From Raillietiella orientalis (lineage: Eukaryota), in assembly GCA_036172245.1 (NCBI GenBank), contig JAYWIR010000007.1, positions 3,906,001 through 3,970,000 of the forward strand: a DNA stretch of 64,000 nt, in the 5' to 3' direction. Of this stretch, positions 1,761 through 32,572 are shown piece by piece (position 1 is the stretch's first letter; every line of letters starts with the position of its first letter). The position numbers were made by a program, and so were the translations under genes. The notes beneath the pieces are model-generated. The model searched no databases, was not told the origin of the DNA, and saw nothing but the letters and a program-made list of their open reading frames with translations.

Positions 1761-2565
1761 TCGCTCCATCTCAGAGCTGAGGCCGAAAAAGTGGGCCGTC
1801 GTCGCATTTCCTTCATTCATTTTCTTCAACAAGCAACCGCTTAGGGAGATATCATCATCATTGACAGGACCATCGAGCATTCTATCCTATGATCACAGTC
1901 TGCGTAAATGGTGAGTTTACCTGCAAGAGGGAATATCGTTCCCCCATCCCCCTCAAATCCACATTTTCTTTATAATGGTATATATTTCTAGGTGGCGTGC
2001 CTTTGTCCTAACAACGCGACCGTTGACCGCATTTGGCGCAGTTATGGTCACAGTTTCGTAGAAGCTGCGTCCTGCTGCTGCAGGCGAGTTTACGTGCCTA
2101 ACCATATGGTATGAGGCTTTGGGTGGCTCATCTCTTTCGCGGGCTGTCTCACTCTGGGCGTGTGTCTGATGAAGCCCTCTGCATCGACAGGCACTGCCCA
2201 TTCTTCACTACATGGAAGGGTGGAAGATGTAAAGTTCACCGAGTTCTAGTGGCACAAACAGTAGAAAAACTGCCCTCAGATGCACTTTAGTAGTTTGCAC
2301 CTAACCAGTTTCAACCTAAACATTACGCTTCCCAGTAATGCGGTTTAGGGCCATCGCAGAGGTCAGCCTTTGGTGCAACAGCCGAGCATCACTCCGTCGT
2401 GATCAGGATCTCGAAACCAAGGTCGAGGGACCACAAGCTACAGAAGAATGCTCCAGAATACGGAATCTATAATGCGAATCTGTAAAACCTGCATAACGAA
2501 TCATGGAGAGGCTTATACTTAGTGCCCGAAATGAACAGTAGGAATCCTCGACTATCGATTCAATC

Positions 2566-2594
2566 GTGCACACAAAATACTAAACCGCGTGCAC
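2566..2594 (-). promoter_or_regulatory. Candidate decayed rolling-circle origin stem-loop
   Basis: Minus strand GTGCACGC-GGTTTAGTATTTT-GTGTGCAC: 8-bp stem (one G-T pair), 13-nt loop ending TAGTATTTT, a 7/9 match to the CRESS nonanucleotide TAGTATTAC. Confidence 0.4.
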
Positions 2595-2645
2595 AACCCA
2601 TGAATCCATTTCTTCATTCCCACTTTGTTTACAATTTGCGTGATT

Positions 2646-3417
2646 TCAGACCACCGTTCGGATGTTAATGAAATGATGAATAGTAGAGTGAATTACGTTT
2701 ACGGAGGCATACATTCGGGCTGTCGATGTAGCACCAGTCAGATGCAGCATCTCGTGCTGAATACGTGGTTCACGTACACACGTACAGTCCTGTTCTTAAA
2801 CTTACTAAACACAGGTGATCTGTTTTGCTGCCAAGTAAGCTGATTCCACATTCCTTCAGAATTACCATTTTTCATATTCCTAAAATCTTCCTCCTCTCCG
2901 GGATTCGTCGCAACAACATAGTTATTCTAAATATATAGTCTCCAGCTATTTCAGAATCCAACACAACCGACTCCTTTTGATCAGCAAAAGTGTCCGCAAG
3001 AGGTTCCAAAGTTATCCTCACACCATACAACTTTACATACTTCAACATACTGGACTTTCCAGTCAGATTCCACAGTCCCAGCAACGTGCCCATCGTGCGG
3101 TTACGGAGATCGGTATGATACACAAAGCAACCAACATAATAACCTTCACTGCCAACAAGCCTCAACTCTTGACTAACAGTATAAGCAGGCTTCGTAAAAT
3201 CAAAATCCCTAAACCTAATACGCGCACCGGAATGCAACACCTTCCCAATCCAAGAGGAAGCACGTCCTAAATTGAGACGATCATTAACACGCCTCCCAAT
3301 TGAATTACGCTTACGATAATTACCAACAGAATGCAATACACGACGTCTACGACGTTATTCACGTAAAGAAACATTCCTGAGATCAGCACGATGACGTGCA
3401 CGCGTAGCAACAGGCAT
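2646..3417 (-). pseudogene. cap: CRESS-virus capsid protein pseudogene
   Basis: From ATG 3417: MPVATRARHRADLRNVSLRE*RRRRRVLHSVGNYRKRNSIGRR (Arg-rich arm, one in-frame stop), in frame with ORF 2872-3336 (KYVKLYGVRITLEP). After frameshifts it continues ...FKNRTVRVYV(x)PRIQHEM..., strand-like segments reminiscent of circo-like jelly-roll capsids. Confidence 0.7.
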
Positions 3418-3537
3418 CCTCACACCGCAACCTCTTGTATCCTAATGCATTCCAAAATGAAGAGAACAAAGAGAATACGAACCCCCTGACCCCCTCACAT
3501 TCCGCCAATTTGACACCGACTACGCAAAAACCACTTG

Positions 3538-3587
3538 GAAAGTGCAGAGGGTGACCCGAACCTCGGCACTTTCAAAACCGTATAAAA
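3538..3587 (+). promoter_or_regulatory. Intergenic hairpin plus TATA box upstream of rep
   Basis: GAAAGTGC(A)GAGG 3538-3550 pairs with CCTC(G)GCACTTTC 3561-3573 (12/13 bp), loop GTGACCCGAA. TATAAAA at 3581-3587, 33 nt before the rep ATG, with a short (AC)n tract between. Confidence 0.6.
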
Positions 3588-3620
3588 CCAAAACACACAC
3601 ACACACCAAAGAGTTACAAC

Positions 3621-4510
3621 ATGCCGTACGCAAAGTGCACGCAGCGGTGCTTCACCTCCAACAACTGGACAACCGCAGAAGAAACAAGTACACAGGGAAG
3701 GTCACTTCGAAAAGAAAAACACGCAATCCTCGGTGAAGCAGGAAGCTCAACCGCTCATCTCCAGGGATGCTTCCAAACAGCAATACCTTCCACGATACCT
3801 CAGATAAAACGAATCCAACGTTTCTCAAGAGCTCCCGCCGAAACCGCCAAAGGAAATCCTCACCACAAAGAGACCAGCAACCATGCGAAAGAGGCAGACT
3901 AGCTCCTGCTATACAGATCAAGTACATCGATTACAAGGACAAATGAACACAATGCATTTCAGATCATCGCATACAGAAAAAAAGGAAAGAACAGAAAAAT
4001 ATTTACGGGAAAACCAACCACAACCATTCGAAAAACAGAAAGCCTTCAACATCGACAGCATAAGACTCGGAAAATCCTACTCTACAAACAATCCAATGAT
4101 CCTCAAAAGATTACAACTATGGCAAAAAAAAACCTACATAGGCCTCATGCAAAGAGAACCCGACCACCGAAATACACATTGGTACACCGACTACCAAGGA
4201 AGCTGGGGAAAAACCACAGCAGCTAAACATATCAAATGCGACGCACCGTACTTAACCAATCGCAAAAAGAGCGGCGCCGCCCACACGCGGAAGGGAGAAA
4301 AAATCATCATGCTGGACCTCCTCACACGACCACATCAACTACGGAATTATGGAAAGCCGATAAAACGGAATGCTGCGCTCCACTAAAACATCAATGTCAC
4401 CTTAAATTACACGATCCACCTCGCTTCATCATCTTCCTCAACATGGACCGCTACTACGAGAAAATGGCAAGCGACCGCTGCACCATCCCTTATTCCACTG
4501 AAGATTTATT
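3621..4510 (+). pseudogene. rep: CRESS-virus Rep (HUH endonuclease + SF3 helicase) pseudogene with nanovirus/alphasatellite-like helicase
   Basis: Motif I RCFTSNN, motif II HLQGC, decayed motif III ETAKG...NHAKE, then PDHRNTHWYTDYQGSWGKTTAAKH (Walker A), IIMLDL (Walker B), INYGIMES(R*)NGMLRSTK, FIIFLN (motif C), KMASDR (Arg finger), in canonical order across three frames with frameshifts and stops. Confidence 0.9.
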
Positions 4511-5210
4511 GGAACCAATGTCACCTGAGAATGGTATTTCACATGCCACTGCGCTGAGCATTTACGCGTTGAATCGAAACCACGCTGCCGAATAATTGTC
4601 CACGAAAATCTCCCAGAAATCTTCCATTCAGTCTTTCTAAACGAGATGCCGGTGAGGATGCTCCACGCTCCTGAAGCAATGTTCTGTTGCACCGTCTAAC
4701 TTTGAAGTAGCACAGCTGTTTCAACATGTTCCTGTCATCCACACCATCCACTTCATCCTTAGCTTTTGCAACATGGAAAAAAGGACAGATTGCACTGATG
4801 CGCAGCACACATCGGATGCACGCGCCTGAGCTGTTTTGTGCTTTGACAAGACACACGGATGCTCAAATATGCAGGTTGTCATCACTTTGGGACTGCAGGA
4901 AGTGTTTCTCATCTCAACAACAGTATTCCTGTAAAACCATGCAGTCAACTATTAGGGAGACCTTCAGACGAGCAGACCGTGAGCAGCAAGCATACTGACG
5001 TTTCCCATCCCAATGTCACGACACCATGCAGTTTTCTAAAGTTTTGTCGCAAGCTGACACTTGAATTCTTGTCAAACACCTTTTTCTTTGTGAATGTCAT
5101 CATGCATACGTAGATCAATCCCCATAAAAAATGAAAATGCTACCCATTTCAACTGTATCTCACTCTTCAATAAAAAACTTGGAAAGCCAAAATTGTTCGA
5201 AAGAATTTAT

Positions 5211-5593
5211 TCATCTTGCAGCATCTAGTAAACACAGCTTTTCATTGACCAACATTCCAGTTCTACACAATCGACACGGATAAATAACCATCAGCAAATC
5301 CAGATCAAAACACCATGAAGACGATTTCCTTTTCCTTTCCAGAACTTGACATTGGTGTTTAACATCTCCTCAAAATTCTTCTGGATTCATCTTAGGTACG
5401 GAAACGACGGGTTTCAAAAGCAATCTCCCAACTTTATTATCTGGCGTAGCATTTCCTCGAATATCTTTTTCCACGTAATTGAGCACTATGTCCAGCAGGA
5501 TTTCCAAAGATAATGTGACATGTGCAATGTGGGTCAACTCAGACTGGCATTTCGTGGTCCTTTCCAAAGAGCGTTTGCTTTTCTGCGCTTGAC
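5211..5593 (-). pseudogene. EIF3F: eIF3 subunit F C-terminal pseudogene fragment
   Basis: LLDIVLNYVEKDIRGNATPDNKVGRLLLKPVVSVPKMNPEEF(+1 frameshift)EEMLNTNVK, a ~44-nt decayed intron, then DLLMVIY...LVNEKL. Matches the eIF3f tail (VLQY...DNTVGRFL...VPK...FETMLNSNINDLLMVTYL...LNEKL). No MPN domain recognisable upstream. Confidence 0.8.
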
Positions 5594-5929
5594 CTGCGAA
5601 AAAAGGAAACCGAGACTAATCAATGTCTTTCAGTTCCTGGAAAGAAAATTTCAAACAACATGAAGTTCTGCAACAAAATGAAGTAAGTACGTTTGCGATG
5701 AATATAATTCCTTGAAAATACTCCCACTTACCACAAAACATGAGATTTTTGTTTTCTATCACAAAACCACATTTACAAGTATTTAAATGAAAATCAACTA
5801 AACTAAACATCAAGGCAATGAGACAAGCATCAGAAACAACTCACCACCAACAACTTCCAAGAATTTTCAGCAGCAGGTCCTTCAGAATCGATGCTCCATA
5901 TGTGCCAAAGCTCTTCTCCAGGAGTGATC

Positions 5930-6687
5930 CACAGTAAAAAAATCCTTCCCATGTTGATGGATCAAAAAAATCAAAAAAAAAAAGGGACGGGGAAGAGGGA
6001 CAAGGGAAAACAAAAACCAAGGGAGGGCACAGAGAATGAGAATGAGGAACAACAAAAACAATTCAGCAAAACCAAAAAAAAAAGTGTCAACAGCAGACAC
6101 GGGGACAGCCAAAACGTCACATGGGTAGGCATTCAGCCAACCATGCACAAGAAAAAAAAAAAACAGACGTAGCCATCAGATCACAACCACGTAATGCAGA
6201 AAGCTCACAGTCAGCCACCGAAACAACCAGGCTGAAGAGAAGACAAAATAAAAAAATCCCAAACACTTTGGAGAGCAATCAAAACAAAAATCACCAAAAA
6301 GGAGACCCAAAGGAAAACAAATCCAAATCCACAAAAACCATGAGAACATCACCAAACACACAAAAAATTCGGGTGAGCAAAACAAAAAAAAAAGCAAATC
6401 ACCCGAGAAAAGAGCATTGCATTCTGTGCTTAAGCACACAGACAAAACAACATCCAAAAACGAAATCCACAAGGACGAACTCAGGTAAAACCCGAGAAAA
6501 ACAGCACCCATGACACCACAGACACCACTGCAGAAAAATCAAGCGATCAGTCCAAAAAAAAAGCACAAATCAAAGCAAACAAACCAAAAACCAAAGCAGC
6601 AAAGAACTTCAAAGCATCGAAACAGGAAGGCAGGAACCCACAACGACCGCTGCCCCTTGGCAAAGAACGTGGTCGCCAAGATAAACG
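5930..6687. repeat. A-rich, T-poor low-complexity tract next to the gap
   Basis: Many A5-A11 runs and very few T on the plus strand. Loosely resembles the LINE 3' UTR-like tract at 36.0-36.25 kb (both have GAGGGACAAGGG followed by A runs). Confidence 0.5.
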
Positions 6688-6787
6688 NNNNNNNNNNNNN
6701 NNNNNNNNNNNNNNNNNNNNNNNNNNNNNNNNNNNNNNNNNNNNNNNNNNNNNNNNNNNNNNNNNNNNNNNNNNNNNNNNNNNNNNN
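6688..6787. other. Assembly gap (100 N)
   Basis: Run of exactly 100 N, a typical placeholder for a gap of unknown size. Confidence 0.99.
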
Positions 6788-9700
6788 CTGGCCGTGGCGG
6801 CCCACAGACGACCGGCGGAATCGCCGGGGCAACTCGACCGACCGGAACTACTTCCAGATGCACCAGAACGCTTTCACTTTCACGCTAACGAAGTGCGGAA
6901 TGGGAAGCAAGGGAAGTGGGAACTTGCAAGGAGGGGAAGTATCCTAGGACAGGGCTCGAGAAACAGGAAGGGAAAAGCTCGCCTTAGAGCAACAGGCCCG
7001 CTCGGCGGTAGCAGGCGCTGAGCTCAACCCGCTCCCGGGAAGAGGCGTGCCGGAAATTCGTAGACTCCATGGGGGAGCACCAACCTGGCAGCGGTGACTA
7101 ATGTTCCGATGGGGGATCGGGGACCAAGCTGCGCATCCAGAAACTGGGAATTCCAATGTTGGGTGGTCGATCGTAGTGACTTCGAAGCTCACTCCACTTG
7201 GCACGCCAAGTGAAACTCTGGAGAGGAGGAAAAAAGAAAAGCGCATCACGGACTTTCGTCGAGGAGCTTCCTCGGGGGGAAGGTTAGCTCCCGAGGGGTC
7301 GCCGTGCCTGCGAGGAGAGATTCGTCGAGACGTTCCTATAATGGTGTTTTGGCCAACTGAAGCGACTCTTCAAGGGAAACGTGGGAAGACACAAAGCGAA
7401 GCATGGAACGCGGAGAGCCCACTGGCCGTGGCGGCCCACAGACGACCGGCGGAATCGCCGGGGCAACTCGGCCGACCGGAACTACTTCCAGATGCACCAG
7501 AACGCTTGCACTTTCACGCTTCAGACAACGAAGTGCGGAATGGGAAGCAAGGGAAGTGGGAACTTGCAAGGAGGGGAAGTATCCTAGGATTGGGGCTCGA
7601 GAAACAGGAAGGAAAAGCTCGCCTTAGAGCAACAGGCCCGCTCGGCGGTAGCGAGCGCTGAGCTCAGCAGGACGCACGGAAGAGGCGTGCCGGGGGAAAC
7701 AGCGCCTCAACCGTCAAGGGGCGCGGCAACCTGGCAGCGGTATGTTCCGATGGGGGATCAGGGACCAAGCTGCGCATCCAGAAACTGGGTTCCAATGTTG
7801 GGTGGTCGATCGTAGTGACTTCGAAGCTCACTCCACTTGGCACGCCAAGTGCAACTCTGGAGGAGGGAAAAGGGAGAAAAGCGCATCACGGACTTTCGTC
7901 GAGGAGCTTCCTCGGGGGGACGGTTAGCTCCCGAGGGGTCGCCGTGCCTGCGAGGAGAGATTCGTCGAGATGTTCCTATAATGGTTTTGGCCAACTGAAG
8001 CGACTCTTCAAGGGAAACGTGTGACAACACAAAGCGAGGCATCGCACGCGCAAAGACCGTAGGCCAGGGCGGCCCACGGGCGACGGGCGGAATCGTCGGG
8101 GCAACTCGGCCGACCGCAACTACATCCACACATCCAGAACGCTTCCACTACCACGCTTCAGAGAACGAACAGTGGGGTGAGAGAGAAGGGAAGTGCGTCC
8201 CTCCAAGGAGGGGAAGTTTCCTCGCTGCGGAGCTCCAGAAGCAGGAAGGAAAAGCTCGCTTTAGAGCAACAGGCCCGCTCGGCGGTAGAGCGCGCTGAGC
8301 TCAACCGGACGCAGGAAAAGGGTTGCCGGGGGATGCAGCGCCTCAACCGCGAAGGGGAGAGTCACTTTGGCAGTGGCACGTGCCGAAGGATCGAGCAGCG
8401 CATCCAGAAACTGTGAATTTCATTGCTGGGTAGTCGAACGTACTGACGTCAGTAACCAGATCACTTGGCACGCCAAATGCAACTCGGGAGCGGGGAAAAG
8501 GTAGAAGAGCGCCTCACGGTCCTGCGTCCGGGAGCTCTCTCGGGGGGACAGGTGGCTCGCGGGGCGAGCGTCGTGCGTGCGAGATCTTCGTCGCGATGTT
8601 CCTACAAGATTTAGTTGGCCAACTGAAGCGACTCTTCAAGGGAAACGTGGGAAGACACAAAGCGAAGCATGGAACGCGGGGGAAGCCCGCTGGCCGTGGC
8701 GGCCCACAGACGACCGGCGGAATCGCCGGGGCAACTCGGCCGACCGGAACTACTTCCAGATGCACCAGAACGCTTGCACTTTCACGCTTCAGACAACGAA
8801 GTGCGAAATGGGAAGCAGGGAAGTGGCATGGGAACTTGCAAGGAGGAGAATCCTAGGATTGGGGCTCGAGAAACAGGAAGAAGAAAAGCTCGCCTTAGAG
8901 CAAGCAGGCCCGCTCGGCGGTAGCGAGCGCTGAGCTCAGCAGGACGCACGGAAGAGGCGTGCCGGGGGAAACAGCGCCTCAACCGTCAAGGGGAGCGGCA
9001 ACCTGGCAGCGGTATGTTCCGATGGGGGATCAGGGACCAAGCAGCGCATCCAGAAACTGGGAATTCCAATGTTGGGTGGTCGATCGTAGTGACTTCGAAG
9101 CTCACTCCACTTGGCACGCCAAGTGCAACTCTGGAGGAGGGAAAAGGGAGAAAAGCGCATCACGGACTTTCGTCGAGGAGCTTCCTCGGGGGGAAGGTTA
9201 GCTCCCGAGGGGTCGCCGTGCCTGCGAGGAGAGATTCGTCGAGATGTTCCTATAATGGTTTTTTGGCCAACTGAAGCGACTCTTCAAGGGAAACGTGGGA
9301 AGACACAAAGCGAAGCATGGAACGCGGAGAGCCCGCTGGCCGTGGCGGCCCACAGACGACCGGCGGAATCGCCGGGGCAACTCGGCCGACCGGAACTACT
9401 TCCAGATGCACCAGAACGCTTGCACTTTCACGCTTCAGACAACGAAGTGCGGAATGGGAAGCAAGGGAAGTGGGAACTTGCAAGGAGGGGAAGTATCCTA
9501 GGATTGGTGCTCGAGAAACAGGAAGGAAAAGCTCGCCTTAGAGCAACAGGCCCGCTCGGCGGTAGCGAGCGCTGAGCTCAGCAGGACGCACGGAAGAGGC
9601 GTGCCGGGGGAAACAGCGCCTCAACCGTCAAGGGCAGCGGCCTGGCAACGGCATGTTCCGATGGGGGATCAGGGACCAAACAGCGCATCCAAAACTGGGA

Positions 9701-12560
9701 ATTCCAATGTCGGGTGGTCGATCGTAGTGACTTCGAAGCTCACTCCCGCTTGGCACGCCAAGTGCAACTCTGGAAGGAGGAAAAGGGAGAAAAGCGCATC
9801 GGACTTTCGTCGAGGAGCTTCCTCGGGGGGAAGGTTAGCTCCGAGGGTCGCCGTGCCTGCGAGGAGAGATTCGTCGAGATGTTCCTATACTGGTTTGTTG
9901 GCCAACTGAAGAGACTCTTCAAGGGAAACGAGGGAAGGCACAAAGCGAAGCATGGAATGCGGAGAGACCGCTGGCCGTGGCGGCCCACAGACGACCGGGG
10001 GAATCGCCGGGGCAGCTCGGCCGACCGGAACTACTTCCAGATGCACCAGAACGCTTGCACTTTCACGCTTCAGACAACGAAGTGCGGAATGGGAAGCAAG
10101 AAGTGGGAACTTGCAAAGGGAGGGGAAGTATCCTAGGATTGGGGCTCGAGAAACAGGAAGGAAAAGCTCGCCTTAGAGCAACAGGCCCCGCTCGGCGGTA
10201 GCAGGCGCTGAGCTCAACAGGACGCACACGGAAGAAGAGCGTGCCGGGGGAAACAGCGCCTCAACCGTCAAGGGGAGCGGCAGCCTGGCAGCGGTATGTT
10301 CCGATGAGGGGATCAGGGACCAAGCAGCTCATCCAGAAACTGGGAATTCCAATGATGGGTGTTCGATCGCAGTGACTTCGAAGCTCACTCCACTTGGCAC
10401 GCCAAGTGCAACTCTAGAGGAGGGAAAAGGGAGAAAAGCGCATCACGGACTTTCGTCGAGGAGCTTCCTCGGGGGGAAGGTTAGCTCCCGATGGGTCGCC
10501 GTGCCTGCGAGGAGAGATTCGTCGAGATGTTCCTATAATGGTTTGTTGGCCAACTGAAGCGACTCTTCAAGGGAAACGTGAGAAGACACAAAGCGAAGCA
10601 TGGAACGCGGAGAGCCCGCTGGCCGTGGCGGCCCACAGACGACCGGCGGAATCGCCGGGGCAACTCGGCCGACCGGAACTACTTTCAGATGCACCACAAC
10701 GCATGCACTTTCACGCTCCAGACGACGAAGTGCGGAATGGGAAGCAAGGGAAGTGGGAACTTGCAAGGAGGAGAAGTATCCTAGGATTGGGTCTGGAGAA
10801 ACAGGAAGGAAAAGCTCGCCTTAGAGCAACAGGCCCGCTCGGCGGTAGCGAGCGCTGAGCTCAACAGGACGCACGGAAGAGGCGTGCCGGGGGAAACAGC
10901 GCCTCAACCGTCAAGGGCAGCAACCTGGCAGCGGCATGTTCCGAAGGGGGATCAGGGACCAAGCAGCGCACATCCCGAAACTGGAATTCAATGTTGGGTG
11001 GTCGATCAGTGACTTCGAAGCTCACGCCACTTGGCACGCCAAGTATGGCAGCTCTGGAGGAGGGAAAAGGGAGAAAGCGCATCACGGACTTTCGTCGAGG
11101 AGCTTCCTCGGGGGATTAGCTCGAGGGGTCGCCGTGCCTGCGAGGAGAGATTCGTCGAGATGTTCCTATAATGGTTTTTTGGCCAACTGAAGCGACTCTT
11201 CAAGGGAAACGTGGGAAGACACAAAGCGAAGCATGGAACGCGGAGAGCCCACTGGCCGTGGCGGCCCACAGACGACCGGCGGAATCGCCGGGGCAACTCG
11301 GCCGACCGGAACTACTTCCAGATGCACCAGAACGCTTGCACTTTCACGCTTCAGACAACGAAGTGCGGAATGGGAAGCAAGGGAAGTGGGAACTTGCAAG
11401 GAGGGGAAGTATCCTAGGATTGGGGCTCGAGAAACAGGAAGGAAAAGCTCGCCTTAGAGCAACAGGCCCGCTCGGCGGTAGCGAGCGCTGAGCTCAGCAG
11501 GACGCACGGAAGAGGCGTGCCGGGGGAAACAGCGCCTCAACCGTCAAGGGGAGCGGCAACCTGGCAGCGGCATGTTCCGATGGGGGATCAGGGACCAAGC
11601 AGCGCATCCAGAAACTGGGAATTCCAATGTTGGGTGGTCGATCGTAGTGACTTCGAAGCTCACTCCACTTGGCACGCCAAGTGCACCTCTGGAGGAGGGA
11701 AAAGGGAGAAAAGCGCATCACGGACTTTCGTCGAGGAGCTTCCTCGGGGGGAAGGTTAGCTCCCGAGGGGTCGCCGTGCCTGCGAGGAGAGATTCGTCGA
11801 GATGTTCCTATAATGGTTTTTTGGCCAACTGAAGCGACTCTTCAAGGGAAACGGGGGAAGACACAAAGCGAAGCATGGAACGCGGAGAGCCCGCTGGCCG
11901 TGGCGGCCCACAGACGACCGGCGGAATCGCCGGGGCAACTCGGCCGACCGGAACTACTTCCAGATGCACCAGAACGCTTGCACTTTCACGCTTCAGACAA
12001 CGAAGTGCGGACTGGGAAGCAAGGGAAGTGGGACCTTGCAAGGAGGGGAAGTATCCTAGGATTGGGGCTCGAGAAACAGGAAGGAAAAGCTCGCCTTAGA
12101 GCAACAGGCCCGCTCGGCGGTAGCGAGCGCTGAGCTCAGCAGGACGCACGGAAGAGGCGTGCCGGGGGAAACAGCGCCTCAACCGTCAAGGGGAGCGGCA
12201 ACCTGGCAGCGGTATGTTCCGATGGGGGATCAGGGACCAAGCAGCGCATCCAGAAACTGGGAATTCCAATGTTGGGTGGTCGATCGTAGTGACTTCGAAG
12301 CTCACTCCACTTGGCACGCCAAGTGCAACTCTGGAGGAGGGAAAAGGGAGAAAAGCGCATCACGGACTTTCGTCGAGGAGCTTCCTCGGGGGGAAGGTTA
12401 GCTCCCGAGGGGTTGCCGTGCCTGCGAGGACAGATTCGTCGAGATGTTCCTATAATGGTTTTTCGGCCAGCTGAAGCGACTCTTCAAGGGAACCGTGCGA
12501 AGACACAAAGCGATGCTTTGCTCGCGGAAGGTCCTCTGGCCCTGTCGGCCCTCAGACGAC
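6788..12560. repeat. Tandem array A: ~642-bp GC-rich monomer, ~9 copies, truncated on the left by the gap
   Basis: Marker CTGGCCGTGGCGGCCCACAGACG recurs at 6788, 7422, ~8080 (noisy), 8690, 9336, 9971, 10619, 11252, 11894 and ~12536 (noisy). The last clean copies are 642 bp apart and nearly identical. Confidence 0.97.
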
Positions 12561-13499: not shown

Positions 13500-16400
13500 C
13501 TGACATCGAAGAGGATGGGGAGAGAAGGGGAGGACATGGGGATGTTCATTTCAAATAGTCATGAACGGGGTGGACTGCTCCTGGAGGGAGCAGCGGGTGC
13601 GAAACCACGTGGTCGTGGTTGACAGATCGACGGGTGTGCTGGATGGATCCAGAAGTGAAGCGAACGAACCAACTGTTTCAAGTGGCCTACCTTCACGACC
13701 AATTGTCGTCTTGTGGCTGTCTCCAGGGATGGATGTATCCTGATACCGCAGCTTCCAGAGGTGGATGAGGCGTGTTTTTCTTTCTGTTGCTTTTTTTTTT
13801 TTTTTTTCTCCCTTTTCTTTTTTTTTTTTTTTTTTTCACCTGGAAATGTTGAGGTCACCCATGTAAAGAAAGGCACGCCAATCGTTCCCCAGACAACCGA
13901 TGCTGTGTGCAATTGGGAGGAGCACGAAGATCTCCCATATGCACAATCATTGTTTCAAGAAAATCCCCTTCCTTCGGAGAACCGATCGAAATCTTTACAA
14001 AAACATGAAATGACGTTGGTGACCGCTGGCTGGAATGCTTTCCAGGCCTTGGGATGCCGCGGGGGGAAAAGGAGGCAGAAACTGTGCAATATGATGCCTG
14101 AGGCATCGCAATGCCGCGTCCACAAAGTCGAACTTCATAAACAGAAGACAATTTGGGGAAATCGAAACGAAATAAATTCCGAACGTCCACGAGGATGGAG
14201 GGAGATGGGGAGGACTTGGGGATGTTCATTTCCGATGGTCATGGAGGGCAAGGATTGCTCCTGGAGGGAGTAGCGGAAGCGAAACCACGTGGTCGTGGTT
14301 GACAGATCGACGGGTGAGAAGGATGGATCCAGAAGTGAAGCGAACGAACCAACTGTTCCGAGTGGCCTACCTTCACGACCGGTTGTCGTCTTGTGGCTGT
14401 CCCCAGGGATGGATGTATCCTGATCCCGCAGCTTCCAGAGGTGGATGAGGCGTGTTTTTCCTTCTGTTGCTTTTTTTTTTTTTCTTCCTCTTTCTTTTTT
14501 TTTTTTTCTTCCTTTTCTTTTTTTTTTTTTTTTCCTGGAAATTTTGAAGGCACCGATGTAAAGAAACACCAACCAATCGTTCCCCAGAAAACCGTTCCTG
14601 TGTGCAATCGGGAGGAGCACGAAGATCTCCAAGATGCACAATCATTTTTTCAAGAAAATCCCCTTCCTTCGGAGAACCGATCGAAATCTTTACAAAACCA
14701 TGAAATGACTTTGGTGACCGCTGGCTGGAATGCTTTCCAGGCCTTGGGATGCCGCGGGGGAAAAAGAAGGCAGAAACTGTGGAATATGATGCCTGAGGCA
14801 TCGCAATGCCGCGTCCACAAAGTCGAACTTCATAACAAGAAGACAATTTGCGGAAATCGAAACGAAATAAATTCGGAACGTCCACGTGGATGGGGGGAGA
14901 TGGGGAGGACCTGGGGATGTTCATTACCGATGGTCATGGAGGACAAGGATTGCTCCTGGAGGGAGTAGCGGAAGCGAAACCGCGTGGTCGGGGTGGACAG
15001 ATCGACGGGTGTGGTGGATGGATCCAGAAGTGAAGCGAACGAACCAACTGTTCCGAGTGGCCTACCTTCACGACCGGTTGTCGTCTTGTGGCTGTCTCCA
15101 GGGATGGATGTATCCTGATCCCGCAGCTTCCAGAGGTGGATGAGGCGTGTTTTTCCTTCTGTTGCTTTTTTTTTTTTCTTCCTTTTCTTTTTTTTTTTTT
15201 TTTTTCCACCTGGAAATTTTGAAGGCACCGATGTAAAGAAACACCAACCAATCGTTCCCCAGACAACCGTTCCTGTGTGCAATCGGGAGGAGCACGAAGA
15301 TCTCCAAGATGCACAATCATTTTTTCAAGAAAATCCCCTTCCTTCGGAGAACCGATCGAAATCTTTACAAAACCATGAAATGACTTTGGTGACCGCTGGG
15401 TGGAATGCTTTCCAGGCCTTGGGATGCCGCGGGGGGAAAACGAGGCAGAAATTGTGGAATATGATGCCAGAGGCATCGCAATGCCGCGTCCACAAAGTCG
15501 AACTTCATAACAAGAAGACAATTTGCGGAAATCGAAACGAAATAAATTCCGAACGTCCACGAGGATGGAGGGAGATGGGGAGGACTTGGGGATGTTCATT
15601 TCCGATGGTCATGGAGGGCAAGGATTGCTCCTGGAGGGAGTAGCGGAAGCGAAACCACGTGGTCGTGGTTGACAGATCGACGGGTGAGAAGGATGGATCC
15701 AGAAGTGAAGCGAACGAACCAACTGTTCCGAGTGGCCTACCTTCACGACCGGTTGTCGTCTTGTGGCTGTCCCCAGGGATGGATGTATCCTGATCCCGCA
15801 GCTTCCAGAGGTGGATGAGGCGTGTTTTTCCTTCTGTTGCTTTTTTTTTTTTTTTTCTTCCTTTTCTTTTTTTTTTTTCTTCCTTTCTTTTTTTTTTTCC
15901 ACCTGAAATTTTGAAGGCACCGATGTAAAGAAACACCAACCAATCGTTCCCCAGACAACCGTTCCTGTGTGCAATCGGGAGGAGCACGAAGATCTCCAAG
16001 ATGCACAATCATTTTTTCAAGAAAATCCCCTTCCTTCGGAGAACCGATCGAAATCTTTACAAAACCATGAAATGACTTGGTGACCGCTGGCTGGAATGCT
16101 TTCCAGGCCTTGGGATGCCGCGGGGGGAAAACGAGGCAGAAATTGTGGAATATGATGCCAGAGGCATCGCAATGCCGCGTCCACAAAGTCGAACTTCATA
16201 ACAAGAAGACAATTTGCGGAAATCGAAACGAAATAAATTCGGAACGTCCACGTGGATGGGGGGAGATGGGGAGGACCTGGGGATGTTCATTTCCGATGGT
16301 CATGGAGGGCAAGGATTGCTCCTGGAGGGAGCAGCGGAAGCGAAACCGCGTGGTCGGGGTGGACAGATCGACGGGTGTGAAGGATGGATCCAGAAGTGAA

Positions 16401-19400
16401 GCGAACGAACCAACTGTTCCAAGTGGCCTACCTTCACGACCGGTTGTCGTCTTGTGGCTGTCTCCAGGGATGGATGTATCCTGATCCCGCAGCTTCCAGA
16501 GGTGGATGAGGCGTGTTTTTCCTTCTGTTGCTTTTTTTTTTTTTTTCTTCCTTTTTTTTTTTTTTTTTTCTTCCTTTTCTTTTTTTTTTCCACCTGGAAA
16601 TTTTGAAGGCACCGATGTAAAGAAACACCAACCAATCGTTCCCCAGACAACCGTTCCTGTGTGCAATCGGGAGGAGCACGAAGATCTCCAAGATGCACAA
16701 TCATTTTTTCAAGAAAATCCCCTTCCTTCGGAGAACCGATCGAAATCTTTACAAAACCATGAAATGACTTTGGTGACCGCTGGGTGGAATGCTTTCCAGG
16801 CCTTGGGATGCCGCGGGGGGAAAAGAGGCAGAAACTGTGGAATATGATGCCTGAGGCATCGCAATGCCGCGTCCACAAAGTCGAACTTCATAACAAGAAG
16901 ACAATTTGCGGAAATCGAAACGAAATAAATTCGGAACGTCCACGTGGATGGGGGGAGATGGGGAGGACCTGGGGATGTTCATTTCCGATGGTCATGGAGG
17001 GCAAGGATTGCTCCTGGAGGGAGTAGCGGAAGCGAAACCGCGTGGTCGGGGTGGACAGATCGACGGGTGTGGTGGATGGATCCAGAAGTGAAGCGAACGA
17101 ACCAACTGTTCCGAGTGGCCTACCTTCACGACCGGTTGTCGTCTTGTGGCTGTCTCCAGGGATGGATGTATCCTGATCCCGCAGCTTCCAGAGGTGGATG
17201 AGGCGTGTTTTTCCTTCTGTTGCTTTTTTTTTTTTTTCTTCCTTTTCTTTTTTTTTTTTCTTCCTTTTCTTTTTTTTTTTCCACCTGGAAATTTTGAAGG
17301 CACCGATGTAAAGAAACACCAACCAATCGTTCCCCAGACAACCGTTCCTGTGTGCAATCGGGAGGAGCACGAAGATCTCCAAGATGCACAATCATTTTTT
17401 CAAGAAAATCCCCTTCCTTCGGAGAACCGATCGAAATCTTTACAAAACCATGAAATGACTTTGGTGACCGCTGGGTGGAATGCTTTCCAGGCCTTGGGAT
17501 GCCGCGGGGGGAAAAGGAGGCAGAAACTGTGGAATATGATGCCTGAGGCATCGCAATGCCGCGTCCACAAAGTCGAACTTCATAACAAGAAGACAATTTG
17601 CGGAAATCGAAACGAAATAAATTCGGAACGTCCACGTGGATGGGGGGAGATGGGGAGGACCTGGGGATGTTCATTTCCGATGGTCATGGAGGGCAAGGAT
17701 TGCTCCTGGAGGGAGCAGCGGAAGCGAAACCGCGTGGTCGGGGTGGACAGATCGACGGGTGAGAAGGATGGATCCAGAAGTGAAGCGAACGAACCAACTG
17801 TTCCGAGTGGCCTACCTTCACGACCGGTTGTCGTCTTGTGGCTGTCTCCAGGGATGGATGTATCCTGATCCCGCAGCTTCCAGAGGTGGATGAGGCGTGT
17901 TTTTCCTTCTGTTGCTTTTTTTTTTTTTTTCTTCCTTTTCTTTTTTTTTTTCTTCCTTTTCTTTTTTTTTTTTTCCACCTGGAAATTTTGAAGGCACCGA
18001 TGTAAAGAAACACCAACCAATCGTTCCCCAGACAACCGTTCCTGTGTGCAATCGGGAGGAGCACGAAGATCTCCAAGATGCACAATCATTTTTTCAAGAA
18101 AATCCCCTTCCTTCGGAGAACCGATCGAAATCTTTACAAAACCATGAAATGACTTTGGTGACCGCTGGCTGGAATGCTTTCCAGGCCTTGGGATGCCGCG
18201 GGGGAAAAAGGAGGCAGAAACTGTGGAATATGATGCCTGAGGCATCGCAATGCCGCGTCCACAAAGTCGAACTTCATAACAAGAAGACAATTTGCGGAAA
18301 TCGAAATCCGCGAAATAAATTCGGAACGTCCACGTGGATGGGGGGAGATGGGGAGGACCTGGGGATGTTCATTTCCGATGGTCATGGAGGGCAAGGATTG
18401 CTCCTGGAGGGAGTAGCGGAAGCGAAACCGCGTGGTCGGGGTGGACAGATCGACGGGTGTGGTGGATGGATCCAGAAGTGAAGCGAACGAACCAACTGTT
18501 CCGAGTGGCCTACCTTCACGACCGGTTGTCGTCTTGTGGCTGTCTCCAGGGATGGATGTATCCTGATCCCGCAGCTTCCAGAGGTGGATGAGGCGTGTTT
18601 TTCCTTCTGTTGCTTTTTTTTTTTTTCTTCCTTTTCTTTTTTTTTTTTTTTCTTCCTTTCTTTTTTTTTTTTTTTTCCACCTGGAAATTTTGAAGGCACC
18701 GATGTAAAGAAACACCAACCAATCGTTCCCAGACAACCGTTCCTGTGTGCAATCGGGAGGAGCACGAAGACTCTGGGTGATAACAATCATTTTTTCAAGA
18801 AGATCCCCTCTTCCTTCGGAGAACCGATCGAAATCTTTACGAAACCATGAAATGACGTTGGCGACCGCTGGCTGGAATGCTTTCCAGGCCTTGGGATGCC
18901 GCGGGGGAAAAAGGAGGCAGAAACTGTGGAATATGATGCCAGAGGCATCGCAATGCCGCATCCACAAAATCGAACCTCATAACAAGAAGACAAACTGGGG
19001 AAATCGAAACGAAATAAATTCCGCACGTCCACGAGGATGGAGGGAGACGGGGAGGACCTGGGGATGTTCATTTCCGATGGTCATGGAGGCCAAGGATTGG
19101 TCCTGGAGGGAGCAGCGGAAGCGAAACCGCGTGGTCGGGGTGGACAGATCGACGGGTGTGAAGGATGGATCCAGAAGTGAAGCGAACGAACCAACTGTTC
19201 CGAGTGGCCTACCTTCACGACAGTTTGCCGTCTTGTGGCTGCCTCCATGGATGGATATATGCTGATCCCGCTGCTTCCAGAGGTGGATGAGGAGTGTTTT
19301 TCCTTCTGTTGCTTTTTTTTTTTTTTTTTTTTTTTCCTTTTTTTTTTTTTTTTTTTCTTCCTTTCTTTTTTTTTTTTTTTTTTTCCACCTGGAAATTTTG

Positions 19401-22400
19401 AAGGCACCGATGTAAAGAAACACCAACCAATCGTTCCCCAGACAACCGTTCCTGTGTGCAATCGGGAGGAGCACGAAGATCTCCAAGATGCACAATCATT
19501 TTTTCAAGAAAATCCCCTTCCTTCGGAGAACCGATCGAAATCTTTACAAAACCATGAAATGACTTTGGTGACCGCTGGCTGGAATGCTTTCCAGGCCTTG
19601 GGATGCCGCGGGGGGAAAAGGAGGCAGAAACTGTGGAATATGATGCCTGAGGCATCGCAATGCCGCGTCCACAAAGTCGAACTTCATAACAAGAAGACAA
19701 TTTGCGGAAATCGAAACGAAATAAATTCGGAACGTCCACGTGGATGGGGGGAGATGGGGAGGACCTGGGGATGTTCATTTCCGATGGTCATGGAGGGCAA
19801 GGATTGCTCCTGGAGGGAGCAGCGGAAGCGAAACCGCGTGGTCGGGGTGGACAGATCGACGGGTGAGAAGGATGGATCCAGAAGTGAAGCGAACGAACCA
19901 ACTGTTCCGAGTGGCCTACCTTCACGACCGGTTGTCGTCTTGTGGCTGTCTCCAGGGATGGATGTATCCTGATCCCGCAGCTTCCAGAGGTGGATGAGGC
20001 GTGTTTTTCCTTCTGTTGCTTTTTTTTTTTTTTTTTCTTCCTTTTTTTTTTTTTTTTTCTTCCTTTTTTTTTTTTTTTTCCACCTGGAAATTTTGAAGGC
20101 ACCGATGTAAAGAAACACCAACCAATCGTTCCCCAGACAACCGTTCCTGTGTGCAATCGGGAGGAGCACGAAGATCTCCAAGATGCACAATCATTTTTTC
20201 AAGAAAATCCCCTTCCTTCGGAGAACCGATCGAAATCTTTACAAAACCATGAAATGACTTTGGTGACCGCTGGGTGGAATGCTTTCCAGGCCTTGGGATG
20301 CCGCGGGGGAAAAGGAGGCAGAAACTGTGCAATATGATGCCTGAGGCATCGCAATGCCGCGTCCACAAAGTCGAACTTCATAACAAGAAGACAATTTGCG
20401 GAAATCGAAACGAAATAAATTCGGAACGTCCACGTGGATGGGGGGAGATGGGGAGGACCTGGGGATGTTCATTACCGATGGTCATGGAGGACAAGGATTG
20501 CTCCTGGAGGGAGTAGCGGAAGCGAAACCGCGTGGTCGGGGTGGACAGATCGACGGGTGTGGTGGATGGATCCAGAAGTGAAGCGAACGAACCAACTGTT
20601 CCGAGTGGCCTACCTTCACGACCGGTTGTCGTCTTGTGGCTGTCTCCAGGGATGGATGTATCCTGATCCCGCAGCTTCCAGAGGTGGATGAGGCGTGTTT
20701 TTCCTTCTGTTGCTTTTTTTTTTCTTCCTTTTCTTTTTTTTTTTTTTTTTTCTTCCTTTTCTTTTTTTTTTTTTTTTTTCCACCTGGAAATTTTGAAGGC
20801 ACCGATGTAAAGAAACACCAACCAATCGTTCCCCAGACAACCGTTCCTGTGTGCAATCGGGAGGAGCACGAAGATCTCCAAGATGCACAATCATTTTTTC
20901 AAGAAAATCCCCTTCCTTCGGAGAACCGATCGAAATCTTTACAAAACCATGAAATGACTTTGGTGACCGCTGGCTGGAATGCTTTCCAGGCCTTGGGATG
21001 CCGCGGGGGGAAAAGGAGGCAGAAACTGTGGAATATGATGCCTGAGGCATCGCAATGCCGCGTCCACAAAGTCGAACTTCATAACAAGAAGACAATTTGC
21101 GGAAATCGAAACGAAATAAATTCGGAACGTCCACGTGAATGGGGGGAGATGGGGAGGACCTGGGGATGTTCATTTCCGATGGTGATGGAGGGCAAGGATT
21201 GCTCCTGGAGGGAGCAGCGGAAGCGAAACCGCGTGGTCGGGGTGGACAGATCGACGGTTGAGAAGGATGGATCCAGAAGTGAAGCGAACGAACCAACGGT
21301 TCCGAGTGGCCTACCTTCACGACCGGTTGTCGTCTTGTGGCTGTCTCCAGGGATGGATGTATCCTGATCCCGCAGCTTCCAGAGGTGGATGAGGCGTGTT
21401 TTTCCTTCTGTTGCTTTTTTTTTTTTTTTTTCTTCCTTTTTTTTTTTTTTTTTCTTCCTTTTCTTTTTTTTTTTTTTTTTCCACCTGGAAATTTTGAAGG
21501 CACCGATGTAAAGAAACACCAACCAATCGTTCCCCAGACAACCCTTCCTGTGTGCAATCGGGAGGAGCACGAAGATCTCCAAGATGCACAATCATTTTTT
21601 CAAGAAAATCCCCTTCCTTCGGAGAACCGATCGAAATCTTTACAAAACCATGAAATGACTTTGGTGACCGCTGGCTGGAATGCTTTCCAGGCCTTGGGAT
21701 GCCGCGGGGGGAAAAGGAGGCAGAAACTGTGGAATATGATGCCTGAGGCATCGCAATGCCGCGTCCACAAAGTCGAACTTCATAACAAGAAGACAATTTG
21801 CGGAAATCGAAACGAAATAAATTCCGAACGTCCACGAGGATGGAGGGAGATGGGGAGGACTTGGGGATGTTCATTTCCGATGGTCATGGAGGGCAAGGAT
21901 TGCTCCTGGAGGGAGTAGCGGAAGCGAAACCACGTGGTCGTGGTTGACAGATCGACGGGTGAGAAGGATGGATCCAGAAGTGAAGCGAACGAACCAACTG
22001 TTCCGAGTGGCCTACCTTCACGACCGGTTGTCGTCTTGTGGCTGTCCCCAGGGATGGATGTATCCTGATCCCGCAGCTTCCAGAGGTGGATGAGGCGTGT
22101 TTTTCCTTCTGTTGCTTTTTTTTTTTTTTTTCTTCCTTTTCTTTTTTTTTTTTTTTTCTTCCTTTTCTTTTTTTTTTTTTTTTTTCCACCTGGAAATTTT
22201 GTAGGCACCGATGTAAAGAAACACCAACCAATCGTTCCCCAGACAACCGTTCCTGTGTGCAATCGGGAGGAGCACGAAGATCTCCAAGATGCACAATCAT
22301 TTTTTCAAGAAAATCCCCTTCCTTCGGAGAACCGATCGAAATCTTTACAAAACCATGAAATGACTTTGGTGACCGCTGGGTGGAATGCTTTCCAGGCCTT

Positions 22401-29141: not shown

Positions 29142-29174
<33 letters not shown>

Positions 29175-29224
29175 CTTCCTTTTTTTCTTTCTTTTTTTTT
29201 TTTTTTTTTTTTTTTTCTTCCTTT

Positions 29225-29265
<41 letters not shown>

Positions 29266-32200: not shown

Positions 32201-32572
32201 ATGAAATGACGTTGGTGACCGCTGGCTGGAATGCTTTCCAGGCCTTGGGATGCCGCGGGGGGAAAAGGAGGCAGAAACTGTGGAATATGATGCCAGAGGC
32301 ATCGCAATGCCGCGTCCACAAAGTCGAACTTCATAAACAGAAGACAATTTGGGAAAATCGAAACGAAATAAATTCCGAACGTCCACGAGGATGGAGGGAG
32401 ATGGGGAGGACCTGGGCATGTTCATTTCCGATGGTCATGGAGGACAAGGATTGCTCCTGGAGGGAGTAGCGGAAGCGAAACCGCGTGGTCGGGGTGGACA
32501 TATCGACGGGTGAGAAGGATGGATCCAGAAGTGAAGCGAACGAACCAACTGTTCCTTGTGGCCTACCTTCAC
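13500..32572. repeat. Tandem array B: ~700-bp monomer, ~27 copies, each with a Tn-CTTCCTTTTC-Tn-CTTCCTTTTC-Tn tract
   Basis: 27 poly-T tracts from ~13790 to ~31965 (mean spacing ~699 bp) with near-identical sequence between them. Sharp right edge at CCTTCAC|TTGG (~32572); the left edge fades into noisy sequence. Confidence 0.98.

Follow-up and report, generated by a model that had tools for sequence, protein, structure and literature searches.

The 64-kb stretch of DNA analysed here (hereafter, the window) very probably holds a dead endogenous viral element: a small ambisense CRESS-DNA virus (phylum Cressdnaviricota) of which an almost gene-complete copy was integrated into the germline. The element spans about 1.85 kb, from ~2741 to 4595 (Table 1), and its layout is of the ambisense type, with a rep gene and a cap-like frame diverging around an intergenic stem-loop. 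The original prediction of an ambisense fossil with a decayed CRESS rep and an intergenic hairpin was borne out, and all four of the items it had described were found close to where it had placed them. Its extent (2560..4510) has been revised: the locus itself stands, but the left end is better placed at ~2741-2800, and the rep frame continues past 4510 to its stop. Likewise, the wider claim of a near whole-genome insertion holds for rep, layout and hairpin, but the capsid identity of the minus-strand frame received no confirmation from sequence, profile or fold.

Regarding its history, the circular genome, in its double-stranded replicative form, would have been cut open within the short stretch separating the 3' ends of rep and cap before its integration into host DNA. 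The original order of cap (minus strand), origin-bearing intergenic region and rep (plus strand) would thereby have been retained; rep has since decayed in the absence of selection. The source virus would have carried a circovirus-like nuclease domain with the signature 'E.AKG', followed by a helicase of the type 'PDxRxxxWxxDxxGxxGKT ... NYxxxE ... SxDR'; the joint presence of an 'E.AKG' nuclease and a PDxRxxxWxxDxxGxxGKT-type helicase is common among unclassified CRESS viruses. Since rep and cap are both broken, no product can be made from them, and in all likelihood the element has no function now beyond marking a past infection of the host lineage.

Table 1. Features of the element and of its host flank, in window coordinates.
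Feature	Position	Strand	Remarks
Putative cap remnant	2741..3417	-	ATG 3417-3415; Arg-rich N-terminus
Intergenic region between the two divergent genes	3418..3620	.	203 nt
Tandem 8-mers ACCCCCTG ACCCCCTC	3481..3496	+	Read in the sequence
Hairpin	3538..3573	.	Stem 3538-3550/3561-3573; 10-nt loop GTGACCCGAA (3551-3560), read by eye
(CA)n microsatellite in rep leader	3593..3606	+	
rep HUH nuclease part, frame a	3621..3902	+	Ends at TAG stop 3900-3902
Motif I, CFTSNN	3648-3665	+	Agrees with RCR motif I (xFTxNN)
Motif II, HLQG	3756-3767	+	Agrees with RCR motif II (HxQ)
rep linker region, weakly alignable	3903..4080	+	Frame a open; switch to frame b near 4080-4100
rep SF3 helicase core, frame b	4081..4350	+	Holds LWQ and PDHRNTHWYTDYQGSWGKT
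Walker A, GSWGKT	4198-4215	+	G44, G47, K48, T49 invariant
Walker B, KIIMLD	4300-4317	+	From alignment to CRESS Reps
Helicase segment INYGIMESR*NGMLRSTK, frame c	4319..4387	+	TAA stop 4361-4363
rep C-terminal part, frame a again	4386..4595	+	Profile match ends at 4505; stop 4593-4595
PPRFIIFLNM with motif C Asn	Asn 4440-4442	+	FIIFLN aligned to 'hvivFAN'
KMASDR	4461-4478 (SDR 4470-4478)	+	In the rep C-terminal part
Host flank: exon-like fragment similar to the C-terminal region of eIF3 subunit F	5373..5615	-	PF13012, E 6.5e-9; PDB eIF3f chains, E 1e-4

The decayed rep gene

A plus-strand rep with HUH nuclease and SF3 helicase parts, as had been proposed, is present at 3621-4595, where it is read in three frames. 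Its damage comprises three frame changes, two premature stops (3900-3902 and 4361-4363) and the loss of the motif III tyrosine. Similarity to Cressdnaviricota Reps is significant and colinear across both domains by HMM, phmmer and tblastn. Searched over the six whole frames of the 64-kb window, an HMM of 52 IMG/VR Reps matched 3645-4091 (21.7 bits, E 1.7e-8) and 4105-4320 (9.8 bits) and nowhere else, the remaining four frames giving E 6. With an HMM of 94 Reps matched to the helicase type, the locus was again the sole match in the window, all six frames considered; 3931-4335 scored 39.5 bits (E 1.2e-13), and 4319-4387 and 4383-4505 were matched in other frames. The scores of the two HMMs are not comparable with one another, because each Rep set was selected by a motif in one domain. 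Four colinear segments in three frames were returned by tblastn, corresponding to Rep positions ~16-86, 176-252, 255-277 and 199-232. Taken piece by piece the rep signal is weak, since Pfam gave nothing relevant on eight frame pieces (no single piece matched at E<=1), and phmmer of three single pieces against the PDB was blank for the nuclease and the cap and yielded only chance matches to uS8 ribosomal proteins (E 0.67-1.7) for the helicase. No close relative came to light: the highest identities, kept down in part by the decay of rep, were 36-39% for the helicase and 40-45% for the nuclease.

In the nuclease part, residues N14, N15, H46, Q48 and G49 fall in invariant columns of an alignment with other Reps (A4). 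The motif III region (3876-3890) reads SNHAK, so that the catalytic Tyr of YxxK is absent from a column which is nearly invariant in the same alignment; its absence fits decay rather than an ancestor outside the CRESS Reps. A phmmer search of the 93-aa N-terminal rep piece against 1,835,955,588 proteins produced four matches at E<=1e-3. Among them P0003 (299 aa, E 2.3e-4, 41% identity) is a genuine CRESS Rep, the rest being three bacterial repeat proteins that were discarded as spurious. The 'E.AKG' signature is that of circovirus-like Reps, and the nuclease piece matched the Rep of bat associated cyclovirus 5 (L126) at E 4e-4 with 29% identity.

In the helicase part, Walker A, Walker B and motif C are all present, and the conserved columns W18, Q19, P31, D32, R34, W38, D41, G44, G47, K48 and T49 have been kept. 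The motif strings given for it in the original prediction were approximate: their overall wording stands, but the I of PDxRxI is a T here, 'KxSxDR' reads KMASDR, and the 'NYGxxExxKNG' string lies in the third frame with a stop in place of the expected K. The same prediction held the helicase to be unlike that of Circoviridae, and the comparison agrees, with E 13 against bat associated cyclovirus 5 and E 8e-15 against Reps of the PDxRxxxWxxDxxGxxGKT type; the latter value is the pairwise one for the Rep of L184, and uncultured Reps of this type share 36-39% identity with the element over 76-89 aa. Searched alone, the helicase piece brought up 27 candidates in a homologous-protein search and eight pattern matches in a related-locus search, with none confirmed in either. 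Scans of metagenomes (40 loci) and of IMG/VR (47 loci), with alignment A3, gave nothing above ~38% identity over the long segment, the identities of 42-49% found there extending only over 25-52 residues, and the clusters to which the nearest Reps belong bore no informative names. Domain chimerism of the Rep was also considered and dropped, as the HMM scores of the two Rep sets are not comparable and Reps with both the nuclease and the helicase wording exist (L025, L170 and L197).

Intergenic region and minus-strand frame

The hairpin and the TATA box that had been pointed out between the two genes are both found. The hairpin folds at -11.5 kcal/mol (z -3.43), none of 200 shuffles folding as well, and its inverted-repeat arms are 16 nt long and 88% complementary; the sequence TATAAAA stands at 3581-3587 (+), 34 nt ahead of the rep start codon (3621). 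We regard the hairpin as a putative replication origin. By eye, no canonical NANTATTAC-like nonamer was seen in its loop or on either strand of 3418-3620; the canonical nonanucleotide may have been lost by decay, or that of the source virus may have been non-canonical. The tandem 8-mers are a possible iteron remnant.

On the minus strand, the arginine-rich frame previously noticed is present, with 16 Arg among its first 52 positions. It is broken by an in-frame stop at 3357-3355 and by at least one frame change near 2875-2926: beyond the stop, 160 codons stay open (3354 to 2875; stop 2874-2872), and a second frame overlaps them from 2926 to 2741 (stop 2740-2738). Judging from its position, its composition and its language-model features, this frame is probably a CRESS capsid gene. 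In Atlas, its language-model features scored 0.94 to a Cressdnaviricota cluster, and 0.92 and 0.91 to clusters in which 29-31% of the members carry Circo_capsid, with a recognition value of 2172, below the 2300 mark.

Searches for homologues of this putative capsid were uniformly negative. By blastp, phmmer, HMM and hhalign, nothing significant was obtained against up to 2204 ORFs of 333 CRESS-like loci; a homologous-protein search gave 22 candidates, none of them at E<=10; ten capsid-cluster HMMs scored only K-rich satellite frames; and Pfam gave no match to PF02443 (Circo_capsid). With hhalign, the comparison with seven cyclovirus capsids covered 18 columns at a probability of 2.1%, and the best of 11 capsid profiles reached 2.4%, little above the reversed control. 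The single-sequence AlphaFold2 model had a pLDDT of 33.8 and was unusable.

This absence of sequence, profile or fold support is what a rep-only element would lead one to expect, the minus-strand frame then being open by chance or belonging to unrelated host or transposon DNA, and a stop-free run of at least 160 codons was indeed reached in 16 of 1000 dinucleotide shuffles of 2560-3420. We nonetheless find that explanation distinctly unlikely. The frame begins 203 nt from rep and on the opposite strand, exactly where cap lies in ambisense CRESS genomes; at least 15 Arg in 52 positions occur at only four places in all six frames of the window, the N-terminus of the frame being one of them and the other three lying in 60%-GC DNA; a G-poor composition block passes through the frame from ~2800; and its Atlas neighbours are viral capsid clusters. 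Furthermore, capsids of different CRESS lineages are known to share no detectable similarity (Dennis et al., 2018, PMC6069186; Kinsella et al., 2020, PMC7493932).

Chromosomal setting and copies

The proposed insertion into an invertebrate chromosome is supported, given that the neighbouring genes look arthropod, that the element carries stops and frame changes, and that a host-like exon stands on the same gap-free stretch; the host flanks on the same contig, together with the decay, argue for a germline insertion. Among the Pfam domains of the window are PP2C, proteasome and LSM, and the Atlas clusters of the PP2C exon are commonest in Arthropoda. The eIF3f-like exon is outside the viral insert, 780 bp to its right and with no gap between them; a final eIF3f exon downstream of it was not found by regex search. 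Farther on, a gap of 100 N (6688-6787) separates the contig bearing the element from the well-annotated host genes of the window. A strand skew resembling that of the insert runs on to ~6.8 kb, and composition is therefore not a clean marker of the right end. At the element, neither terminal redundancy nor flanking inverted repeats were detected beyond chance-sized matches. The surroundings are repeat-rich DNA beside satellite arrays; TRF reported no array, and the satellite period is above the TRF limit.

Sequencing data with the element came from one low-coverage run only (X1), which may be the assembly's own sample, and no RNA data set with it was listed. Its contigs reproduce the cap stops 2874-2872 and 2740-2738 and the region 4319-4363 without any difference, and in the contig covering 4174-4375 the frame c helicase segment is identical. 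Another contig (2626-2776) crosses the likely left end, an end that is not firmly placed, in a run that may be the assembly's own. No contig of X1 was seen to bridge a firmly placed host-virus junction, and 2405-2525, 3252-3493 and 3615-4098 are without cover and so uninformative. Also present in the run are divergent versions of both the left flank and the cap region, together with at least one second copy, ~87% identical and with a 94-bp deletion, that shows skips of 94 bp and 97 bp.

These observations bear on whether an exogenous CRESS virus from the sample might have been misassembled into the host scaffold. CRESS viruses are common contaminants, the scaffold gap lies 2.1 kb to the right, and no independent junction-spanning read was found in the single run X1. 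Even so, contamination is very improbable: with both genes broken and the catalytic Tyr lost, a replicating virus would not be viable; the breaks recur in short-read-sized X1 contigs; non-viral DNA, including the eIF3f-like exon, continues on the contig for no less than 2.7 kb on the left and 2.1 kb on the right; and a second copy diverged to this degree and carrying a deletion is what genomic paralogues would be expected to provide.

Relationships and significance

The uncultured CRESS genomes of IMG/VR that compare best with the element (L171; L177, L184, L200 and L206; L170, L192 and L197) resemble it in the helicase wording of Walker A, Walker B, 'NY..E..KNG' and 'S.DR', most of them with 34-39% identity over 69-89 aa (82 aa for L197, 71 aa for L170), and none is close. 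The nuclease wording 'E.A[KR]G' is common to the element and to L170, L197 and L172, and L171, the closest of the 2.5-kb relatives, has the same ambisense layout with convergent 3' ends. On the other hand, the capsids of the IMG/VR relatives (246-471 aa) show no similarity to the minus-strand frame, and the nuclease of the 4.5-kb group (L177, L184, L200 and L206) is unlike that of the element, reading 'HFQGCFQ' and having its best solved match in PDB 6h8o/2hwt, which we take to be a nanovirus Rep. It is scarcely credible that the Rep derives from a non-viral replicon (a plasmid, a Helitron-like or another rolling-circle element), for although HUH Reps are common to plasmids and transposons (Kazlauskas, 2019), an HUH and SF3 fusion of ~300 aa, a divergent Arg-rich partner frame and a hairpin fit a CRESS virus, the nearest relatives are all on 2-5-kb IMG/VR viral contigs with capsid genes, and neither transposon ends nor long terminal inverted repeats turned up.

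Circoviridae (Cyclovirus, bat associated cyclovirus 5) are like the element in genome size class, ambisense layout, Arg-rich capsid N-terminus and nuclease wording. They are unlike it in the helicase, for which PCV2-type PDB helicase chains were also unmatched, and in the capsid, where neither Circo_capsid nor a cyclovirus profile was matched; on the helicase value (E 13), the absence of PF02443 and the hhalign result (2.1%), the element is not placed within this family. The helicase wording singled out in the original prediction would in turn be common to the element and to Nanoviridae and Alphasatellitidae; a nanovirus kinship of the helicase is only indirectly supported, through the 6h8o/2hwt match given by the nuclease domains of its nearest relatives. 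The nanovirus genome is divided among ~1-kb circles, each with a single gene, and Rep is all that alphasatellites encode. The element, unlike both, has rep and a cap-like frame on one molecule, 203 nt apart, and this one-molecule ambisense layout excludes membership in Nanoviridae.

A more far-reaching reading would make the element the fossil of an unsampled family-level CRESS lineage infecting arthropods, with a capsid lacking any detectable relative, endogenised or amplified more than once, and with copies possibly kept as antiviral memory in a piRNA locus; we consider this rather unlikely. Its component of repeated endogenisation or amplification is suggested by the ~87%-identical copy with the 94-bp deletion in X1.

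Returning to the dead, nearly gene-complete insertion, it had been presumed at the outset that most reported endogenous CRESS elements are rep-only. For invertebrates this premise agrees with the invertebrate CVe screen of Dennis et al. (2018, PMC6069186), in which all the newly found elements are rep-derived and many are intact; but insertions of whole genomes, or of rep with cap, had already been published. Such insertions, whole or rep+cap, were described from Entamoeba and Giardia (Kinsella et al., 2020, PMC7493932). Cyprinid fish carry full-length circovirus genomes in tandem, and vertebrates have furnished four cases of rep with cap (Dennis et al., 2019, PMC6372831); Hymenolepis microstoma has a cyclovirus Rep accompanied by part of a capsid (Rosario et al., 2018, PMC6186406). 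Like the invertebrate CVe, the element appears to be a Rep-derived germline fossil, left in an arthropod-like genome by a divergent, unclassified CRESS virus, and a marker of host association; unlike them, it is badly broken, but the intergenic region upstream, with its hairpin, and a probable remnant of cap have survived. With the whole-genome and rep+cap insertions it shares the two genes side by side and the preserved layout, its own capsid being putative; it differs from them in host group and virus lineage, in being a single unit in which no tandem redundancy was detected, and in having no known exogenous counterpart.

Arthropods commonly carry Rep-derived CRESS fossils, and insertions of whole CRESS genomes have been recorded in protists, fish and a tapeworm. 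The element is of an ordinary kind, a little unusual in having kept its gene layout and a probable capsid gene, and it leaves the understanding of how such elements arise unchanged. CRESS viruses have mostly come from metagenomes, with no host attached. A germline fossil shows directly that its lineage once replicated in the germ cells of an animal. The present one assigns to an arthropod-like host a Rep in which a circovirus-like nuclease is joined to a non-circovirus helicase, and confirmation of the minus-strand frame would give this lineage a capsid as well, of a kind that Rep-based screens miss.

Rep pieces, intergenic region and statistical support

In a direct reading of the region, with every stop-to-stop frame listed, the plus-strand rep gene appears as pieces in three frames (see table). 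Rolling-circle motifs I (CFTSNN) and II (HLQG) lie in its first frame, as does the "E.AKG" wording found ahead of motif III, whose tyrosine has been lost.

Features of the insert and its surroundings
Feature	Position	Strand	Sequence or remark
rep nuclease frame	ATG 3621, TAG stop 3900-3902	+	MPYAKCTQRCFTSNNW...HAILGEAGSSTAHLQGCFQ...RAPAETAKGNP...KEAD
rep helicase, second frame	3808-4386	+	LQLWQ...REPDHRNTHWYTDYQGSWGKTTAAKHI...KGEKIIMLDL; Walker A and Walker B
rep helicase, third frame (c)	4319-4387	+	INYGIMESR*NGMLRSTK
rep, first frame resumed	4386-4505, on to stop 4593-4595	+	PPRFIIFLNMDRYYEKMASDRC
rep break 1	TAG 3900-3902	+	stop
rep break 2	near 4080-4100	+	frame change
rep break 3	near 4320	+	second frame change
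rep break 4	TAA 4361-4363	+	stop
rep break 5	near 4386	+	third frame change
TATAAAA	3581-3587	+	intergenic
hairpin	stem 3538-3550/3561-3573		loop GTGACCCGAA; -11.5 kcal/mol
cap-like frame start	ATG 3417-3415, stop 3357-3355	-	MPVATRARHRADLRNVSLRE
cap-like open run, 160 codons	after stop 3357-3355, ends 2875	-	begins RRRRRVLHSVGNYRKRNSIGRR
second cap-like frame	overlaps 160-codon run, continues to 2741	-	frame listing
eIF3 subunit F exon-like fragment, C-terminal region	5373-5615	-	PF13012 E 6.5e-9; PDB eIF3f E 1e-4
scaffold gap, 100 N	6688-6787		divides the insert's contig from satellite arrays and annotated host genes
PP2C exon, 390 codons	41776-42945	-	Atlas neighbours mostly arthropod
proteasome-subunit exon	62523-63128	+	domain match
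LSM-domain (Sm-like) ORF, uninterrupted	63278-63742	-	domain match

Piece by piece, the signal of the element is weak: none of the eight frame pieces matched Pfam singly at E<=1, PDB sequence searches with single pieces found neither Rep nor capsid, and word-seeded protein searches with them were blank. Profiles were therefore built from the Reps of real CRESS genomes, drawn from IMG/VR by two short degenerate motif patterns. Run with all filters off across all six frames of the window at full length, a 52-Rep HMM had just two matches, at 3645-4091 (21.7 bits, E 1.7e-8) and at 4105-4320 (9.8 bits); the other frames gave E 6. The 94-Rep HMM of the second motif type reached 39.5 bits (E 1.2e-13) at 3931-4335, and its match carried on colinearly through 4319-4387 (frame c, profile 198-220) and 4383-4505 (profile 219-259). 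Single Reps used in tblastn returned four colinear segments across three frames; the Rep of the IMG/VR locus L197, for instance, aligned through residues 16-86 (3648-3854), 176-252 (4081-4320) and 255-277 (4319-4387). In a scan with the 93-aa nuclease piece, unbiased and covering 1.84 billion representative proteins, four matches reached E<=1e-3, including P0003, a CRESS Rep of 299 aa (E 2.3e-4; 41% identical over its match at residues 9-81). The other three (P0001, P0002, P0004) were rejected as spurious, being long bacterial repeat proteins in which a short "LQGCF"-like word occurs many times; with 4-7 matched stretches each, they ranked above the true Rep. With decayed queries, real homologues can be outranked by short repeated words.

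The two divergent ATGs are separated by 203 nt containing the hairpin, TATAAAA and a (CA)n run; the z-score of the hairpin (-3.43) was equalled by none of 200 shuffles. Because of the profile, tblastn, protein-scan and folding results, rep and hairpin are real, and the original prediction of a plus-strand rep with HUH and SF3 motifs, an intergenic hairpin and a TATA box is borne out.

Affinities of the Rep

The helicase had been placed outside Circoviridae, and the piece indeed shows no similarity (E 13) to the Rep of L126, an IMG/VR locus assigned to that family via its capsid (database name "bat associated cyclovirus 5"). Against Reps worded PDxRxxxWxxDxxGxxGKT it reaches 36-39% over 76-89 residues (E from 1e-11 to 3e-13 when a small database was searched, and 8e-15 in pairwise comparison), and their invariant columns are retained. 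The profile of these helicase relatives has its solved-structure matches confined to the nuclease part (best 6h8o/2hwt, which we take to be a nanovirus Rep) and none with PCV2-type helicase chains. The nuclease piece is 40-45% identical to Reps worded "WCFTLNNY ... E.AKG ... YCSK", the profile of which matches 7lar, presumably the PCV2 Rep, at E 6.5e-68; against the cyclovirus Rep of L126 the piece gives E 4e-4. Among the retrieved genomes, L170, L197, L172 and L025 hold both wordings within one Rep, so recombination is not required as an explanation. As the two Rep sets were each selected by a motif in a single domain, domain chimerism is not claimed here; 71% of unclassified CRESS Reps have been described as looking chimeric (Kazlauskas et al., 2018).

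When IMG/VR (47 loci) and JGI metagenomes (40 loci) were scanned under the guidance of an alignment, nothing came closer than ~38% over the long helicase segment. The proposed nanovirus/alphasatellite-like affinity is supported only as a resemblance in helicase wording. Here, rep and a cap-like frame share one molecule, which is not the architecture of Nanoviridae or Alphasatellitidae. Separately, six IMG/VR loci of 4.5-4.7 kb (L177, L184, L200, L206, L157, L168) form a coherent uncultured CRESS group, with Reps of 248-250 aa ("HFQGCFQ"; nuclease best match PDB 6h8o/2hwt) and capsids of 334-360 aa ending "...GELWVSYTV.LRKPKFF"; all 28 members of their Rep cluster are named just "hypothetical protein".

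The putative capsid frame

The minus-strand frame lies in the place of cap in ambisense CRESS genomes, and 16 of its first 52 positions are Arg; at least 15 Arg in 52 positions occur at only four places in all six window frames, the other three in 60%-GC DNA. When 2560-3420 was shuffled 1000 times with dinucleotides preserved, 16 of the shuffles produced a stop-free run of 160 codons. In the Atlas, a protein-language-model cluster resource, the cluster nearest to the 160-aa piece consists of Cressdnaviricota hypothetical proteins (0.94, 191/256 features in common), the next two have Circo_capsid on 29-31% of members, and the remaining neighbours are all viral coat clusters; the recognition value of the piece is 2172, below the 2300 mark. 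The prediction of an Arg-rich, capsid-like frame holds for composition and position, while all alignment-based homology tests were negative: no capsid homologue came up by blastp, phmmer or cluster HMMs among as many as 2204 ORFs from 333 CRESS-like loci, and hhalign against ten capsid clusters and one cyclovirus capsid alignment gave a best probability of 2.4% (reversed control, 0.5%). The AlphaFold2 single-sequence model has pLDDT 33.8, and one stretch of 18 residues, KYVKLYGVRITLEPLADT, is similar to a conserved strand in cyclovirus capsids, though not significantly (E 0.02). Dennis et al. (2018, PMC6069186) noted that divergent CRESS lineages of invertebrates may have capsids with no detectable similarity to known ones. 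From context and composition, we consider the frame a likely capsid remnant.

Probable integration, history and significance

The window neighbours of the insert are eukaryotic host genes. Satellite arrays and the 100-N gap lie between it and the PP2C, proteasome and LSM genes; the eIF3f-like fragment is 780 bp to its right, on the same gap-free stretch. Neither the upstream MPN part nor the downstream final exon of this fragment was found nearby, and it may be a pseudogene fragment. The host neighbours and the broken state of both viral genes speak for an endogenous element. X1, a public DNA run containing the sequence (low coverage, contigs only, possibly the assembly's own sample), has contigs of 151-202 nt identical to 2626-2776, 2860-3010 and 4174-4375; both lower cap stops recur in them, as do the breaks at 4319-4363. 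A further contig differs at 12 positions over 2787-2918 and at 26 over 3013-3160, skipping 94 bp (2918 to 3013); diverged copies of the left flank (1984-2302) and a diverged right-flank contig with a 97-bp skip (4525 to 4623) are also present. These diverged contigs, ~85-90% identical to parts of window positions 1800-5400, fit genomic paralogues, so that genome has one or more further copies of the element with its surroundings. No X1 contig was found to bridge a firmly placed host-virus junction.

The left end, predicted at 2560, is probably to be moved to near 2741-2800, because the second cap frame stops and a G-poor block begins there; the right end falls between 4505 and 4595. Neither terminal redundancy nor target duplication was detectable at the insert. 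The double-stranded replicative form would have been opened between the 3' ends of both genes, and the linearised form may then have entered germline DNA, either via non-homologous joining or in an event linked to Rep. The element decayed after insertion, leaving both viral genes dead and no function.

The plus strand at window positions 2800-6800 is G-poor and A-rich throughout, with a GC skew between about -0.2 and -0.35 and an AT skew reaching +0.7, and the insert skew on the Rep-sense strand (-0.26/+0.29) is beyond all 109 small CRESS genomes sampled. Since it extends well beyond the insert, the skew may belong to the region, linked to transcription or to repeats, and not to the virus. A GC-rich (~60%) repeat of ~2.5 kb occupies 7000-12200, with near-identical ORFs at 7098-7661, 9093-9575 and 11651-12133. 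At 13600-32500 lies a long satellite-like array (unit ~0.7 kb) with near-identical ORFs every ~690-705 nt on both strands, each having a poly-K/poly-F (A/T-run) tract; TRF gives no report on it, its period being >500.

Rep-derived CRESS fossils have been described in mites, spiders, beetles, flies, amphipods, copepods and others, and in the screen of Dennis et al. (2018, PMC6069186) all the new elements were rep-only. Whole integrated CRESS genomes are reported in Entamoeba and Giardia (Kinsella et al., 2020, PMC7493932), tandem full-length circovirus genomes in cyprinid fish and both genes in four vertebrate cases (Dennis et al., 2019, PMC6372831), and a cyclovirus Rep with partial capsid in Hymenolepis microstoma (Rosario et al., 2018, PMC6186406); arthropod rep and cap loci may already be in print, e.g., in supplementary tables of the Dennis, Kinsella or Rosario papers. 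A putative role as piRNA source in arthropods is possible. The element is a genuine yet ordinary viral fossil, to which the preserved layout and a possible capsid lend modest extra value.
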